Shown here in pieces: positions 12,305-18,704 of a DNA stretch of 64,000 bases (position 1 is its first letter; the number at the start of each line of letters is the position of its first letter). The notes below the pieces were generated by a model. It searched no databases. It was not told the DNA's origin and saw only the letters and a program-made list of their open reading frames with translations. The position numbers and the translations under genes are program-made. Source of the stretch: Bdellovibrionota bacterium FG-1 (GTDB lineage Bacteria > Bdellovibrionota > UBA1018); the NCBI GenBank assembly GCA_051382295.1, contig JBBCAW010000062.1:50040-114039 (forward strand), read 5' to 3'.

Positions 12305-13105
12305 CTACACCTCAAAAAAATCCATCAGCACGGCAAAAGGGGCTTGTTCTGGCGACTTTTCGACGATTGGCTCGATATCTTGAAGGAGTTGAAGCATCAT
12401 CGAGCGAATTCGCTCGGCATCGACGCGCGAGATTCCAAACAGGGCCGAATAGTGAAGGGGCTGACCTTTCGGACTTTCGATCGCACTGAGAGCTTTGACC
12501 CGCCAATTGCTATGGTGACGCGGAAGAAGGGGCGATGAAGTCCCGAGATGAATTCGACCGGTCCCAATGGAAAGCTTGCCGCCCTTTTCTTTAACCAGGC
12601 CTCGTTGAATCAAGAAACGGAGCCCCTTTTCAACCAGCTCTGGAGCAAGACCTAACCGCTCAATGATGGCTTCGCTAGTTTGAGTGCCCGGCAACGCGCT
12701 CAGAATGTGAATCGCGCCATACCACCAGGCACTGTAATAAGTGACCTGATCGTCTAAACCGAGTTCGTTTTTAACCCCGATGCGCTCTTTGACTAACTGG
12801 CGTTTTTGCAAAATGGCGTCGGCCTGCGCTTGAAAAAATCGTTCGAGTTCTTTGGACCCTGCTTTGTCTTTTTGAACCAAGAGCATGAAGAACTGACTTT
12901 CTTCAGCGGTGTGCCTGAAAAACTCTGAGGTTTTTAGCGCATGTTCCAGACTCAATTGCGACTTTCCACTCAGGACCTGCGACACAAACGAGGTCTGGCA
13001 CTGAAGATGTCGCGCAAGGCGCGCCCGTCCCCCTTTTTGCAGGGTCTCTTGGTTCATTTGGGCGATGAGGTAGTCTCGATAATGATTAAAATCAAAGAGG
13101 GCCAT
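12305..13105 (-). CDS. TIGR02147/DUF4423-type HTH protein (putative regulator)
   Basis: LFDFNHYRDYL start, HTH (SFVSQVLSGK), YYSAWWY, winged helix, C-terminal MDFFEV. Confidence 0.8.
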   Translation of the reverse strand: MALFDFNHYRDYLIAQMNQETLQKGGRARLARHLQCQTSFVSQVLSGKSQLSLEHALKTSEFFRHTAEESQFFMLLVQKDKAGSKELERFFQAQADAILQKRQLVKERIGVKNELGLDDQVTYYSAWWYGAIHILSALPGTQTSEAIIERLGLAPELVEKGLRFLIQRGLVKEKGGKLSIGTGRIHLGTSSPLLPRHHSNWRVKALSAIESPKGQPLHYSALFGISRVDAERIRSMMLQLLQDIEPIVEKSPEQAPFAVLMDFFEV

Positions 13106-14258: not shown

Positions 14259-14333
14259 GGATCACCCAACCGAAGCGCGTCCTCCACCATGAGGGCTCCG
14301 GGTTGACTAGCACGCTGTACCCGCGAACCTCCC

Positions 14334-14471
14334 CTAGCTTCGGTCTAAGTGACTGGAAACGAAATCGATAAGAAAAACCAGAAGTTTCCAGATCAGTAAA
14401 AATAGTGCGGATCTGAACTTCAGTTTTTCATACCGACGCCGAGAAGAATAACATGTTCTTTTATTCTTCAT
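14334..14471 (-). CDS. 45-aa basic/hydrophobic peptide, putative type I toxin: MKNKRTCYSSRRRYEKLKFRSALFLLIWKLLVFLIDFVSSHLDRS
   Basis: GAGAGGTG Shine-Dalgarno just upstream of ATG; frame conserved in all three copies. Confidence 0.8.
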   Translation of the reverse strand: MKNKRTCYSSRRRYEKLKFRSALFLLIWKLLVFLIDFVSSHLDRS

Positions 14472-14475
14472 AAGG

Positions 14476-14514
14476 CACCTCTCTTTCTATCAGGAAGGGA
14501 GGTGTTTTCCTTTT
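14476..14514 (+). terminator. Rho-independent terminator of putative antisense RNA, copy 1 (same sequence in copies 2 and 3)
   Basis: CACCTCTCTTTCT-ATC-AGGAAGGGAGGTG is fully paired with G-U on the + strand and followed by TTTTCCTTTT. Confidence 0.65.
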
Positions 14515-14548
14515 CACGCGCGCCTCGGTTGGGCTGGGTGGATCCTAA

Positions 14549-14564
14549 AGCAAGGTCAGTGCCG
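14549..14564 (-). promoter_or_regulatory. Sigma54 -24/-12 promoter, copy 1
   Basis: CGGCACTGACCTTGCT, GG-N10-GC spacing. Confidence 0.75.
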
Positions 14565-14898
14565 GAAAAAGATGCAAAAAATGGCGATTTTTGAGCAAGA
14601 TCTGTTCGAATTTCGGATCAAAGTGGGGAATCCGGACTTCATTACTGAAACTTCAGTAGGCAGTGCTCATCACCGCCGCTGCGGCTCACTATTACCCACA
14701 TGAGGAGTTTGCGCATTTGTCACTTCGAGATTCGGGAGTCCCAGATCGTTTCGTGAACGTTTTAAATGCACAAGCACCTGCAATGGGTTAACAAACTCAC
14801 TTAAAACCTGAAACGTTTCCTCCTGTCCACTTACCAAGGGTGAGCTAAGCGCCTAATCATTCAATAACTATTTGTTTTAATAATGATTTACATACCTA

Positions 14899-14927
14899 TT
14901 GCACCATACAATATTGTATCATACTAT
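14899..14927 (+). promoter_or_regulatory. Sigma70 promoter with palindromic operator in spacer
   Basis: TTGCAC-N17-TACTAT; ATACAATATTGTAT palindrome at 14906-14919; ATG 7 nt downstream. Confidence 0.65.
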
Positions 14928-14934
14928 ATATCTC

Positions 14935-15471
14935 ATGGACGTTCATACAACTCTCAATCAGTTCGATGAATACCTCGCACAAAGAGGACAAGCCTTTGAA
15001 GCCGTTGTCATTGGTGGCGCTGCCCTCATCGTCATGGGGATCATCAGCCGGGATACGATTGACGTAGATTGCCTTGATCCAAAAATTCCAGATGAAATTC
15101 TGAAACATGCAGCAAATTTTAGAACATCCGCTCCCAATCTTAGACTCCATGAAAAATGGATCAACAATGGTCCAGATTCTCTAATTCGAGACTTACCCCA
15201 TGATTGGCGAACCAGGCTCGTTCCAATTTTTAAGGGAGAATCACTTCATCTTCTTACCTTAGGTCGACTGGACCTCCTAAAAACAAAACTCTTTGCCTTT
15301 TGTGATCGTGATCAAGACCTGCAAGATTGTATGGCATTTAAACCTACTCAAAAAGAACTAGACTCCTGCATAGATTGGGTTTCACAGCGAGATGGAAACC
15401 CAAACTGGCCCGAAAATGTTCGCCGCCATTTTGAGATCCTCAAAAAGAGACTAGGTCATGATCAAACCTAA
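14935..15471 (+). CDS. DUF6036-like nucleotidyltransferase (AbiEii/type IV toxin-like)
   Basis: VIGGAAL...RDTIDVD, WINN, DLLKTKL, RDQDLQD; start moved to ATG 14935. Confidence 0.8.
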   Translation: MDVHTTLNQFDEYLAQRGQAFEAVVIGGAALIVMGIISRDTIDVDCLDPKIPDEILKHAANFRTSAPNLRLHEKWINNGPDSLIRDLPHDWRTRLVPIFKGESLHLLTLGRLDLLKTKLFAFCDRDQDLQDCMAFKPTQKELDSCIDWVSQRDGNPNWPENVRRHFEILKKRLGHDQT

Positions 15472-16141
15472 CCATGACCTTTCACTCAATCAAAAACTTG
15501 CCTCAATCGGCTTTCGAATCAATTATGATTCGCTCGGGTTGAAGTTAAAAAATCTTTCGTTACTAGAAAATGCCGACCTTGAAGAAACCCTCATTCACGC
15601 AGCCTTTGAAGCAAAAACTGATTTTAGAACTCTATCCATTCTCTTAAGCTGGATTACCGTGCACGCCGATTACGTGATTGTTGAGAAATTTTTAAAAAAA
15701 ATAAAATTATTTGAAAAGATCCATGGGGTAAACCGCGTTCTTGATCTCATGGCCGCGCACGCCGTAATAAACGGCAGCCATAAATGGAAAAAAGCCATCC
15801 GAACGCATGTGAAACGTCCCGAGTTTCCAGTCGACCCCGAATTACTTAAAACTTCAATTGAATTTCAAGGGGCCGATGATACACTCAAGAAATTTGGAAT
15901 TTTAATTCCGAAAAAACTCCTCCGAATTCGAACCAGCGATGTTCTACAGCCAGCAGAACTTTCCACCATTAACCCCCAATATCGCAACCGGCTTCTTTTT
16001 GGCGCTTCCTGGCGCTCCGACATTATTACAGCCATTGAGGCTGGAATAAAAAACCCCAATCAGATCTCCAAAATGCTGGGCTGCTCCTATGAGCCCGCCT
16101 ATCGCATCTTCAAAGATTACCGAGCGGCACATGGAATCTAA
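15458..16141 (+). CDS. Hypothetical protein with C-terminal HTH; probable partner of the upstream nucleotidyltransferase
   Basis: Overlaps the upstream gene; C-terminal NPNQISKMLGCSYEPAYRI. Confidence 0.7.
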   Translation: MIKPNHDLSLNQKLASIGFRINYDSLGLKLKNLSLLENADLEETLIHAAFEAKTDFRTLSILLSWITVHADYVIVEKFLKKIKLFEKIHGVNRVLDLMAAHAVINGSHKWKKAIRTHVKRPEFPVDPELLKTSIEFQGADDTLKKFGILIPKKLLRIRTSDVLQPAELSTINPQYRNRLLFGASWRSDIITAIEAGIKNPNQISKMLGCSYEPAYRIFKDYRAAHGI

Positions 16142-16240
16142 AACAACAACTTTTTTGTAGTTTTAAAATCACCCAACCGAGCCGCGTCCTCCGCCATGAG
16201 GGCTCCGGGTTGACTAACACGCTGTACCCGCGAACCTCCC

Positions 16241-16378
16241 CTAGCTTTGGTCTAAGTGGCTGGAAACGAAATCGATAAGAAAAACCAGAAGTTTGCAGAT
16301 CAGTAAAAATAGTGCGGATCTGAACTTCAGCTTTTCATACCGATGCCGAGAAGAATAATAGTACTTCTTATTCTTCAT
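16241..16378 (-). CDS. 45-aa peptide, copy 2: MKNKKYYYSSRHRYEKLKFRSALFLLICKLLVFLIDFVSSHLDQS
   Basis: Same SD, start and stop as copy 1; synonymous differences (AAA/AAG, AGT/AGC). Confidence 0.8.
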   Translation of the reverse strand: MKNKKYYYSSRHRYEKLKFRSALFLLICKLLVFLIDFVSSHLDQS

Positions 16379-16455
16379 AAGGCACCTCTCTTTCTATCAG
16401 GAAGGGAGGTGTTTTCCTTTTCACGCGCGCCTCGGTTGGGCTGGGCGTATCTCAA

Positions 16456-16471
16456 AGCAAAGTCAGTGCCA
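16456..16471 (-). promoter_or_regulatory. Sigma54 -24/-12 promoter, copy 2
   Basis: TGGCACTGACTTTGCT, near-consensus. Confidence 0.8.
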
Positions 16472-16690
16472 TGAAAAGGCGCAAAAATCGGCGATTTTCA
16501 AGCAAAAGCTGTTCAGACTTCGGATCACGACGGGGAATCCGGACTTCATTGCTGAAACTTCAATAGGCAGCGCTGATCACCGCCGCTGCGGCGCTAGGGT
16601 TTTGATCACTATCTAAAATCACCCAACCGAGCCGCGTCCTCCGCCATGAGGGCTCCGGGTTGACTAACACGCTGTACCCGCGAACCTCCC

Positions 16691-16831
16691 CTAGCTTTGG
16701 TCTAAGTGGCTGGAAACGAAATCGATAAGAAAAACCAGAAGTTTGCAGATCAGTAAAAATAGTGCGGATCTGAACTTCAGCTTTTCATACCGATGCCGAG
16801 AAGAATAGTACTTGGACTTCTTATTCTTCAT
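16691..16831 (-). CDS. 46-aa peptide, copy 3: MKNKKSKYYSSRHRYEKLKFRSALFLLICKLLVFLIDFVSSHLDQS
   Basis: Differs from the other copies by a frame-preserving 3-nt insertion. Confidence 0.8.
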   Translation of the reverse strand: MKNKKSKYYSSRHRYEKLKFRSALFLLICKLLVFLIDFVSSHLDQS

Positions 16832-16908
16832 AAGGCACCTCTCTTTCTATCAGGAAGGGAGGTGTTTTCCTTTTCACGCGCGCCTCGGTTGGGCTGGGCG
16901 GATCCCAA

Positions 16909-16924
16909 AGCAAAGTCGGTGCCG
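16909..16924 (-). promoter_or_regulatory. Sigma54 -24/-12 promoter, copy 3
   Basis: CGGCACCGACTTTGCT. Confidence 0.75.
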
Positions 16925-17062
16925 TAAAATATGCCAAAGACAGGCAAATTTCCGGCGAGAGCTGTTCAGAATTCGGATCGGAGTGGGGAATCCGGACTTC
17001 ATTGCTGAAACCTCGATAGCCGGCTCTACTCACCACCACTGCGGCTCACTATGACCCACCTA

Positions 17063-17111
17063 AAAACCGGGTTATAATTGCATTGACATTACACTTATAA
17101 CCCGGTTTTAT
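17063..17111 (+). promoter_or_regulatory. 15-bp inverted repeat operator overlapping a sigma70-like promoter
   Basis: AAAACCGGGTTATAA (17063-17077) and TTATAACCCGGTTTT (17095-17109) flank TTGACA at 17083. Confidence 0.65.
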
Positions 17112-17505: not shown

Positions 17506-18336
17506 ATGAAAACCCACATTCGAAACCCCCTCAAACCCAAAGCGCTTTCCAAAAAGCTTCTCCTTTCGGTTCAATTCAAAAACGTTGAAGCCTCATCGAG
17601 TGGCTGGCTTGGGGATTTTGATAAATACACGTTCAAAGACCAAAACGGGTCCGAATACCTCATTAAGGTCGGCCAGGACAAAGCTAAAAACCTTCCCGAA
17701 GTTGAGTTTTTAAGTAATCAAATATCTAGCATCCTTGGAGTCGAAGTCGCGGATTTTGGTCTATGGACCGTCGATGGAAAAAAAGCGTTTGCAACCAAGG
17801 ATTTTCTTAAAAATAATCCGAAAATCCCAGAAACCGCCGGCCTCATCCATTTTAAACGCTATTTCAAAACCAGCGGTCGCTGGGCCTGCGAAGACATCCT
17901 CGACCTCTTAAAAAAACAATCGAGCAGGTCAGCGCACGATATTCGACAATTCATCCGCCTGACCTTGGTCGACGCCCTTATCGGCAACACCGACCGCCAT
18001 GCCTATAATTTAGCCTTTATCCACGAAGACAGTCATCTTTACCTGAGTCCCATTTATGACACCGTCAGCGTTTTCGTGGCCGTCGATCGAGACCCATACG
18101 AGGATTTTATTGACACCTGCAAAATCGGCACAAAAGATCAGGATACGGCGAGATTCGAAGACTATCTAACAGAGTTTAAACGGCTAGGGTTCGCAAAGGA
18201 GGTCACGGTCGTCTTAACGGCCATGACGTCCAAAAAAAATAAAATTTTTGCCTTGATTCAAAAGTCAAAACTTCCCCTCATCAAAAAAGAGTACTGGTGC
18301 GACCGAATCAATAAAACAATCAAGAGCCTCAAATGA
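17506..18336 (+). CDS. HipA/HipT-like kinase toxin
   Basis: YLIK, EFLS, DALIGNTDRHAYN, LSPIYD; lacks the N-terminal Couple_hipA subdomain. Confidence 0.88.
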   Translation: MKTHIRNPLKPKALSKKLLLSVQFKNVEASSSGWLGDFDKYTFKDQNGSEYLIKVGQDKAKNLPEVEFLSNQISSILGVEVADFGLWTVDGKKAFATKDFLKNNPKIPETAGLIHFKRYFKTSGRWACEDILDLLKKQSSRSAHDIRQFIRLTLVDALIGNTDRHAYNLAFIHEDSHLYLSPIYDTVSVFVAVDRDPYEDFIDTCKIGTKDQDTARFEDYLTEFKRLGFAKEVTVVLTAMTSKKNKIFALIQKSKLPLIKKEYWCDRINKTIKSLK

Positions 18337-18704
18337 AAAAAATTCAGGTCACCCTTGAGACCCAACTTAAGAAAAAGATCGTCGGATTTTTATATCGGCG
18401 ACGAGCCGCATGGATATTCGAATACGACCCGTCGTGGATAAATAGCGGCGTTAATATTGACCCCCAATTCGAAAAGAAACCAGGACCCCAACCTTTTAAA
18501 GAATTGCCGGAGTTTTTTTCAGACAGAATCCCGCCACTGGGGTCTCAGATGAGAGGCGCCTACGGAAAAGCATGGAAACTTAATCACTCGGAGCATGACG
18601 AAATGTCACTTCTAGTTACCGTCGGCCATCGGGGACCGACGAACTATGTCTTTTACCCCATCGGGTTCACCCCAGGACTTTGGGCAGAGCTGGAAAAACG
18701 CTAA
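18333..18704 (+). CDS. HipA N-terminal domain (HipS-like) protein
   Basis: VGFL...WIFEYDPSW...LPEFFSDRIP; ATGA-coupled to the kinase. Confidence 0.8.
   Translation: MKKIQVTLETQLKKKIVGFLYRRRAAWIFEYDPSWINSGVNIDPQFEKKPGPQPFKELPEFFSDRIPPLGSQMRGAYGKAWKLNHSEHDEMSLLVTVGHRGPTNYVFYPIGFTPGLWAELEKR

Follow-up and report, generated by a model that had tools for sequence, protein, structure and literature searches.

A Bdellovibrionota family of multicopy peptide genes resembling type I toxin-antitoxin loci, with predicted FliA-type and sigma-54-type promoters

Introduction

The window analysed here (the whole stretch of DNA, 64,000 nucleotides from Bdellovibrionota bacterium FG-1) contains three copies of a peptide-gene unit on its minus strand, at positions 14261, 16168 and 16618. 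These copies raise the question of what is encoded opposite the translation start of the peptide gene, and of when the peptide could be made. A first-pass annotation had proposed a plus-strand antisense RNA over the SD and start codon of the gene, with a type I toxin-antitoxin (TA)-like role. Both proposals are upheld here as predictions, the RNA by a conserved promoter and a G-U bias in its hairpin, and the role, as a proposed reading, by a small hydrophobic ORF, a sequestered SD and the antisense promoter. In our judgement, each unit is probably a type I TA module, wired as described below, from a new family confined to Bdellovibrionota. How chromosomal type I toxins are triggered has long been an open question, and in this family the trigger is directly testable because both promoters point to named regulators.

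14334-14471, minus strand: peptide ORF of copy 1, 45 aa, with a basic N-terminus and a hydrophobic helix; putative type I toxin
16168-16544, minus strand: copy 2, with its ORF at 16241-16378
16618-16997, minus strand: copy 3, with its ORF at 16691-16831

The Peptide-Gene Family

A profile search identified 26 copies in the source genome, with an E-value gap from 7e-15 to 2.5, and a DNA profile of the same genome recovered 25 complete units, fragments and one unit with an internal deletion. Matches to the peptide profile occurred in 17 of 74 other genomes of the host's taxonomic family and in 22 of 401 genomes sampled across the phylum; all 22 belong to the same order, and one of these matches (E = 9e-4, inside a long ORF) is probably due to chance. 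A library-wide protein search returned 58 unnamed proteins, mostly of 38-53 aa. A motif scan found 18 stretches, 17 of them in records titled as Bdellovibrionota, Oligoflexia, Bdellovibrio-like or Deltaproteobacteria and the remaining one in a 2-kb contig titled Rickettsiales. At the DNA level, no match was found in 40 relatives, the family being reachable only by profile, and a scan of genome contigs with a single peptide confirmed no copy. The comparison set comprised 53 copies (25 from the source genome and 28 from 16 other genomes), after three of 56 had been left out: one cut by a contig end, one leaderless and one internally deleted. Since the copies are kin, p-values calculated across them overstate.

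The peptides are 41-53 aa long, basic and hydrophobic, with a net charge of +5 to +14, and 46 of the 53 copies contain a hydrophobic 19-mer at or above 1.6. Structure prediction gives a single helix (pLDDT 78), for which dN/dS is about 0.4, and the pattern of substitution indicates that the ORF is under purifying selection. Searches of Pfam, NCBIfam, PDB (by sequence or fold) and PHROGs gave no meaningful match to the peptide and no homology to known toxins. In an Atlas search, unnamed clusters scored 0.82-0.83 and TisB 0.76, below a usable score. Likewise, the RNA had no Rfam match at gathering score, and its matches by E-value were at chance level only.

These genes form a previously undescribed family, restricted to Bdellovibrionota and type I TA-like, with an unusual inferred wiring. 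No such family was found in a literature search confined largely to papers available without subscription. Within mostly open main texts, no type I system was found in Bdellovibrionota, and neither a FliA-made antitoxin nor a sigma-54-made toxin mRNA was found in any organism. The candidate tables of Fozo 2010 and T1TAdb, which lie beyond that scope, could hold related peptides. In the available portion of a 2025 review of TA expression cues, there is no mention of FliA, RpoN or CsrA (PMC11951105).

The Antisense Promoter and Its Start Site

14419-14445, plus strand: FliA/sigma-28-type promoter TTCAGTTT-N11-GCCGAGAA inside the peptide ORF of copy 1, identified by motif match and conservation
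16326-16352, plus strand: FliA promoter of copy 2
16776-16802, plus strand: FliA promoter of copy 3

The first-pass annotation had put forward a TAAAAAT element as the candidate promoter of the antisense RNA, but this element is not conserved. What is conserved is a FliA-type promoter: each copy carries, on the antisense strand, TTAAGTTT-N11-[T/G]CCGATGA or a close variant, and the same motif was present in 19 of 19 further copies. Its core, CGA, is invariant in 51 of 51 distinct promoters. The codon preceding the conserved Arg ends in T in all 51, across His, Tyr, Ser, Phe, Asp and Cys, whereas such codons elsewhere in the family ORFs end in T in 302 of 482 cases. Similarly, the Arg codon itself is CGG in 44 of 51 and never AGA or AGG, which account for 78 of 170 Arg codons elsewhere. 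Codon usage thus shows synonymous-site conservation of the antisense promoter in all 51 distinct copies.

In Bdellovibrio, the FliA consensus TTAAG...CCGATA was found at 92 of 140 attack-phase promoters, three sRNAs included, and the family's antisense promoter matches this motif (PMC3627812). Similar sites precede four of the six flagellin genes of the source genome, with modest matrix scores (3.9-10.3). The source genome encodes FliA, as do 21 of the 23 carrier genomes and all 16 of the good ones. As in a FliA regulon, -35 and -10 boxes, an 11-nt spacer, start-site geometry and the sigma factor are all present.

The numbering of the Pseudomonas aeruginosa fliC promoter, (-15)GCCGATAA(-8) (PMC12784957), puts +1 eight bases after the box, which gives the same +1 here, at about 14453. 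This would be the second base of the loop described by the first-pass annotation. All 51 distinct copies, and all of the 19 examined later, have a pyrimidine exactly at -1 and a purine at +1. Elsewhere in the source genome, a long ORF starts at the +1 offset of five of 489 non-family sites, where the mean over 33 other offsets is 0.45 (with the matrix derived from other genomes; P = 1e-4, or about 0.004 when corrected for the pattern having been noticed first). These five sites (C12:43006, C41:55879, C141:12261, C53:49433 and C62:106488 in the source genome, G000), at which the FliA-type +1 is the ATG, look like leaderless mRNAs. Scans for sigma-70 promoters and terminators gave results at chance level only.

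The Antisense RNA and Its Copy-Specific Segment

14453-14514, plus strand: predicted antisense RNA of copy 1, about 62 nt, with a 19-nt single-stranded 5' tail, a 17-bp 3' hairpin and a U-tract
16360-16421, plus strand: predicted antisense RNA of copy 2
16810-16874, plus strand: predicted antisense RNA of copy 3
14472-14508, both strands: H2, SD/anti-SD hairpin, which would lock the SD on the mRNA and form the 3' hairpin of the antisense RNA
14443-14469, minus strand: H3, start-codon hairpin (the stem of the first-pass annotation), in its full form only on the mRNA if +1 is 14453
14452-14460, both strands: copy-specific segment, the predicted antisense RNA 5' end and the loop of the mRNA start-codon hairpin

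A plus-strand antisense RNA at 14453-14514 is likely, judging from these signals. Its predicted length of about 62 nt replaces the 80-110 nt suggested earlier. Within the window, the RNAs would measure 62 nt (65 nt in copy 3), with a single-stranded tail of 19-22 nt and a 17-bp hairpin; family-wide, the estimate is 57-81 nt. The 62-nt RNA of copy 1 folds with z = -5.9, and for the 72-nt stretch at 14443-14514 the value is z = -6.1, with none of 200 shuffles as stable. As had been claimed, the region covers the SD and first codons of the 45-aa ORF; the predicted RNA itself overlaps the SD and codons 1-7.

The second hairpin and U-tract noted in the first pass are present, the hairpin with 17 bp at 14472-14508, but a strong U-tract turns out to be a trait of the subfamily. 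Six U in 8 nt occur in only five of the 53 copies (at least five in 16 of 53), so the 3' end of the antisense RNA is uncertain and may be set by trimming in most copies. In copy 1, H2 has four G-U pairs on the plus strand and is followed by TTCCTTTT. Across 38 distinct H2 helices, 55 G-U versus A-C positions are of antisense type and 11 of mRNA type, where composition predicts 23:15; these core counts were made separately from a free-register helix count, whose long-range alignments are noisy. GNRA tetraloops lie mostly on the mRNA side of H2 (11 of 23, against one of 23 on the antisense side), so this hairpin is probably used on both strands. The earlier observation that non-Watson-Crick pairs are G-U on the plus strand therefore holds for H2. 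It does not extend to the first stem, which is entirely Watson-Crick in copy 1, so that its strand evidence reduces to one loop-closing pair in copy 3.

The first stem, GAAGAATA[A/G]...TTATTCTTC, and its loops CATGTTCTT (14452-14460), TAGTACTTC and TACTTGGACTTC are as first described, and the loop is indeed copy-specific and hypervariable. Among 14 close pairs of copies, 55 of 217 positions of the variable segment differ, compared with 26 of 359 third codon positions (25% vs 7%), a 3.5-fold divergence, although third positions are constrained by RNA structure and do not provide a clean neutral rate. In the same pairs, 34 of 693 first and second positions and 54 of 845 3' UTR positions differ, and two pairs are essentially identical in the variable segment. 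Copies 2 and 3 of the window differ at four of 11 positions in this segment and at three of 275 in the remaining transcript. Its assignment to an antitoxin loop has to be revised: with +1 at about 14453, the 5' arm of the stem is left outside the antisense RNA, and the segment is predicted to be the single-stranded 5' end.

The first 8 nt of the antisense RNA are distinct in 24 of the 25 source-genome copies. Tail-to-target duplex energies likewise favour the cognate mRNA by at least 3 kcal/mol in 24 of 25 copies, the advantage being 4.9, 5.5 and 11.2 kcal/mol for those in the window. Past the first 8-11 nt, however, the three window RNAs are identical; insulation between copies, which is a prediction, would depend on kinetics, and cross-neutralisation is possible. 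The roughly 25 paralogous pairs of putative toeholds lend themselves to the study of how antisense recognition diversifies and could supply orthogonal RNA switches.

The Peptide mRNA

14550-14563, minus strand: sigma-54 (-24/-12) promoter, GG-N10-GC, just upstream of the closing stem
16457-16470, minus strand: sigma-54 promoter of copy 2
16910-16923, minus strand: sigma-54 promoter of copy 3
14604-14637, unstranded: pair of phased palindromes with the consensus GTCCGAAATTCGGAC, putative sites for an activator
14265-14534, minus strand: predicted mRNA of about 270 nt with a 5'-3' closing stem (arms 14519-14533 and 14265-14279)
14502-14517, minus strand: H5, hairpin with an ANGGAN loop (CsrA-type site), identified by covariation and weak in the subfamily of the window
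14314-14322, minus strand: 3' UTR motif GGGT[A/G]CAGC, near-invariant across copies, within a stem-loop

The -24/-12 consensus of sigma-54 promoters is GG-N10-GC, and this signature is found in 46 of the 53 copies, including 25 of 25 in the source genome, which encodes RpoN and 25 sigma-54 activators. Upstream of it, the palindrome GTCCGAAATTCGGAC recurs with a spacing of about 10 bp. When its matrix is built from other genomes, 21 of the 25 source-genome copies exceed a score of 10, compared with 12 of 1000 random windows. The palindrome is not exclusive to the family: 203 of the 220 genome sites scoring above 12 lie elsewhere, and near-perfect examples outside the family occur at G000 C18:7432, C141:21793, C106:14927, C53:1039 and C14:7409, among others. 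The flagellar cascade was considered as the sigma-54 input but found no support: no family-like sigma-54 site or strong palindrome lies upstream of the eight flagellar loci examined.

The predicted mRNA has a median length of 265 nt across the family, folds with z = -6.4 and has its SD paired. Strand bias points to the mRNA both for the closing stem, H1 (G-U vs A-C, 28:1), and for the 3' UTR stem (37:9). The GGGT[A/G]CAGC motif is near-invariant across genomes as well, and the pairings found do not account for it.

H5 overlaps the anti-SD and presents ANGGA in 37 of 38 distinct leaders (GG served as the search anchor, the first A did not). Its stem is paired in 136 of 152 cells, versus 108 in shuffles, and includes compensatory pairs. 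The ANGGAN hexaloop is a CsrA-type site (PMC7652899). In the source genome, fliA, flgM, csrA and fliW are all encoded, and csrA is present in 22 of 23 carrier genomes. A cluster of flgM, flgK, flgL-like, csrA and fliW genes at G000 C7:26579-30548 constitutes a complete FliW-CsrA-flagellin switch.

Two ways of exposing the SD were modelled, and neither was borne out. For an AapA-like activation by 3' trimming, the equilibrium model showed the SD at least half open in none of 51 copies after 30 nt had been removed from the 3' end. With 3' trimming or with H5 forced, as in CsrA-driven opening, the SD opened in at most one of 51. The cost of opening it is 17-18 kcal/mol, barely altered by either treatment; among 28 rows, two of which are repeats, it was lowered by at least 2 kcal/mol in four. 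The fold models thus contain no route to translation of the peptide, and our guess is that it is translated in a co-transcriptional window.

Genomic Context

No conserved neighbour gene was found among 114 flanking proteins; the copies lie amid unrelated housekeeping genes and have no phage match. The window copies lie on either side of a DUF6036 nucleotidyltransferase pair and ahead of a HipA pair. The first of these pairs, at 14899-16141 on the plus strand, is inserted between copies 1 and 2 and consists of the DUF6036 nucleotidyltransferase gene overlapping a 227-aa gene with a weak C-terminal HTH; a palindrome at 14897-14928 accompanies it, and it resembles a type IV (AbiE-like) TA pair. 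A 23-bp inverted repeat (17063-17109) comes just after copy 3. At 17506-18704 on the plus strand, a HipA_C gene is followed by a Couple_hipA gene, with a DUF4143 fragment ahead of both, making this region a cluster of TA-like genes. DUF4423 genes are found repeatedly near copies, at 12305-13105 in the window and at L010, L015, L025, L047 and L061; they are abundant in carrier genomes, and the recurrence may be due to chance.

Some copies elsewhere are interrupted. L100 and L109, in one genome, are both broken by the same foreign sequence, probably the end of an insertion element. In another pair from one genome, L108 and L110, both interruptions fall at one and the same site, immediately beyond the FliA -35 box; in L110 the interrupting sequence is the end of a group II intron (Rfam RF00029, gathering score), and the near-identical sequence in L108 has no match.

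Proposed Mechanism and Alternatives

From the conserved signals, structures, hypervariability and decay pattern seen in the sequence, we infer transcription, sigma identity, a toehold mechanism, toxicity, insulation and CsrA binding as follows. The sigma-54 promoter, with its upstream activator-like sites, would give an mRNA of about 265 nt with paired ends, whose SD and AUG would be locked in hairpins and which would encode a cationic membrane peptide. From inside the ORF, FliA (sigma-28) would transcribe an antisense RNA of about 60-80 nt. The copy-specific 5' end of this RNA would nucleate pairing at the variable loop in the AUG hairpin of its cognate mRNA, displace the stem and then cover AUG and SD. 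With the antisense RNA coming from FliA and the mRNA from sigma-54, the peptide would be possible only when the activator is on and FliA output is low. If the antisense RNA is FliA-driven, the switch would be tied to the life cycle of the cell through a swimming-stage sigma factor.

A more elaborate version of this mechanism is tentative and, taken whole, rather doubtful. It is a life-cycle logic gate in which sigma-54 and a dedicated activator produce the toxin mRNA, FliA the antitoxin, and the CsrA site provides input from the FliW-flagellin switch, while a rapidly evolving RNA toehold keeps each of the roughly 25 paralogues insulated. If this is true, the peptides would appear only before the flagellar checkpoint or on collapse of the swimming program, as a developmental kill-switch, a dormancy trigger or a timed membrane-lytic burst in a Bdellovibrio-like cell.

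The same two transcripts could also serve a peptide that acts as a membrane regulator without toxicity or as a lytic peptide aimed at prey, with the antisense RNA as a swimming-stage off-switch. This seems rather unlikely to us. Both promoters are of regulated types, unlike those of constitutive addiction modules, a CsrA-type site is present, and the housekeeping surroundings and lack of a phage match described above would suit such a role. However, the SD is deeply locked, the recognition segment diverges fast, which a single developmental switch would not need, and remnants that have lost the helix repeatedly retain the antisense unit. In 13 of 13 N-terminal-only copies fetched, a frameshift, deletion or replacement has removed the helix, and all 13 retain the FliA boxes together with the start dinucleotide; these are 13 of 14 such rows and come from other genomes, the 14th being the internally deleted copy of the source genome. 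A remnant on contig C96 comprises little beyond the antisense unit. Five C-terminal-only matches lack SD and start, owing to contig ends or insertions, and no intact expressed ORF with a broken -10 core was seen among the copies examined. This decay pattern is what would be expected if the peptide were harmful, in rows that were selected for being partial.

Improbable, in turn, is the form first proposed, a longer antisense RNA from an upstream promoter, with a variable hairpin loop and IsoA1-like loop-loop binding. As an mRNA hairpin, H3 exceeds its shuffled versions in stability in 45 of 53 copies, but its mismatches lean antisense (24:7, expected 19:15; p = 0.017 without correction for kinship). 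This count speaks against an H3 that forms on the mRNA only and favours a stem forming on the antisense strand. In addition, an open 5' tail of at least 17 nt is predicted in 22 of 53 copies, the other 31 folding partly at the 5' end, and copies with long inserts carry a small hairpin in the 5' part. Against the longer RNA, upstream sigma-70-like sites are not above chance, TAAAAAT lacks conservation, the 5' arm of the stem overlaps with the conserved promoter, and the C96 remnant ends just past the -35 box. It is possible that A-C mismatches leave the mRNA hairpin readily open to invasion, which would reconcile the H3 count with the shorter, FliA-driven RNA preferred here.

It is very improbable that there is no small RNA at all, the hairpin serving only to lock the SD or to end plus-strand read-through and the "promoter" being a by-product of peptide conservation. 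The motif does overlap conserved residues (R, EKL), and a plus-strand gene ends 3 nt ahead of copy 1. Yet the motif is invariant at synonymous sites and is retained once the helix is lost, and the adjacent gene points away in L010, L012, L013, L016 and L018. Finally, a MITE- or REP-like repeat, with the closing stem as its terminal inverted repeats, would fit dispersal at unrelated sites, tandem copies and 15-bp inverted ends, but as the sole explanation it is largely refuted and scarcely credible, given that conservation extends about 100 bp past the inverted repeat through promoter and palindromes, that G-U pairs are strand-specific and that the ORF appears to be under purifying selection.

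Comparison with Known Systems

The units share the traits of the type I TA class: a small (20-60 aa) hydrophobic ORF under selection, a structured mRNA, as predicted, of 150-400 nt with a sequestered SD, and a predicted cis-antisense RNA gene with its own promoter over the translation start. They belong to none of the AapA/IsoA, Hok/Sok, Ldr/Rdl and Ibs/Sib families.

Ibs/Sib loci are tandem paralogues with variable recognition segments, and the Ibs peptides are under 20 aa. The family described here resembles them in its tandem paralogues and variable recognition segments, and the first-pass annotation had drawn the comparison with sib/ibs-type arrays. The family is not sib/ibs: there is no Rfam sib match, the promoter lies inside the ORF, and the predicted antisense RNA does not span the ORF, whereas Sib spans the whole of it.

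Hok/Sok and Ldr/Rdl are similar in that their antisense RNA is short and combines a 3' hairpin with a 5' leader that is single-stranded, and in that the ends of the mRNA fold back. The Sok leader is named in the title of a reference in PMC8167048. Unlike the predicted RNAs of this family, which cover the toxin's own SD and first codons, those of Hok/Sok and Ldr/Rdl lie 5' of the toxin ORF and act through mok or ldrX. No conserved leader ORF appears in the family DNA profile, and there is no homology.

Two regulatory systems also offer parallels. The antisense promoter matches the TTAAG...CCGATA motif of the Bdellovibrio FliA attack-phase regulon (PMC3627812), and the ANGGAN hexaloop, with csrA and fliW present, recalls the CsrA-FliW-flagellin switch (PMC7652899). 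The available passages on these systems contain no link from either regulator to a type I TA module.

AapA/IsoA, from Helicobacter and Campylobacter, comprises multicopy chromosomal loci with an mRNA of about 250 nt, 5'-3' pairing and a sequestered SD; the antitoxin promoter lies inside the ORF, and the antisense RNA covers the 5' region and ORF start with cognate specificity (PMC5416894, PMC8594479). The present family is alike in its multiple copies, mRNA end pairing, sequestered SD, in-ORF antitoxin promoter, overlapping antisense RNA and specificity, the last being a prediction here. It differs in showing no detectable peptide or RNA homology (Pfam, NCBIfam, PDB, PHROGs, Rfam) and in its promoters, FliA-type for the antitoxin instead of TATAAT and sigma-54-type for the toxin. 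Recognition is predicted to proceed via the 5' end rather than two kissing loops, and 3' trimming does not free the SD in the equilibrium model. Overall, by analogy, the layout is closest to AapA/IsoA and the predicted shape of the antisense RNA is closest to Sok.
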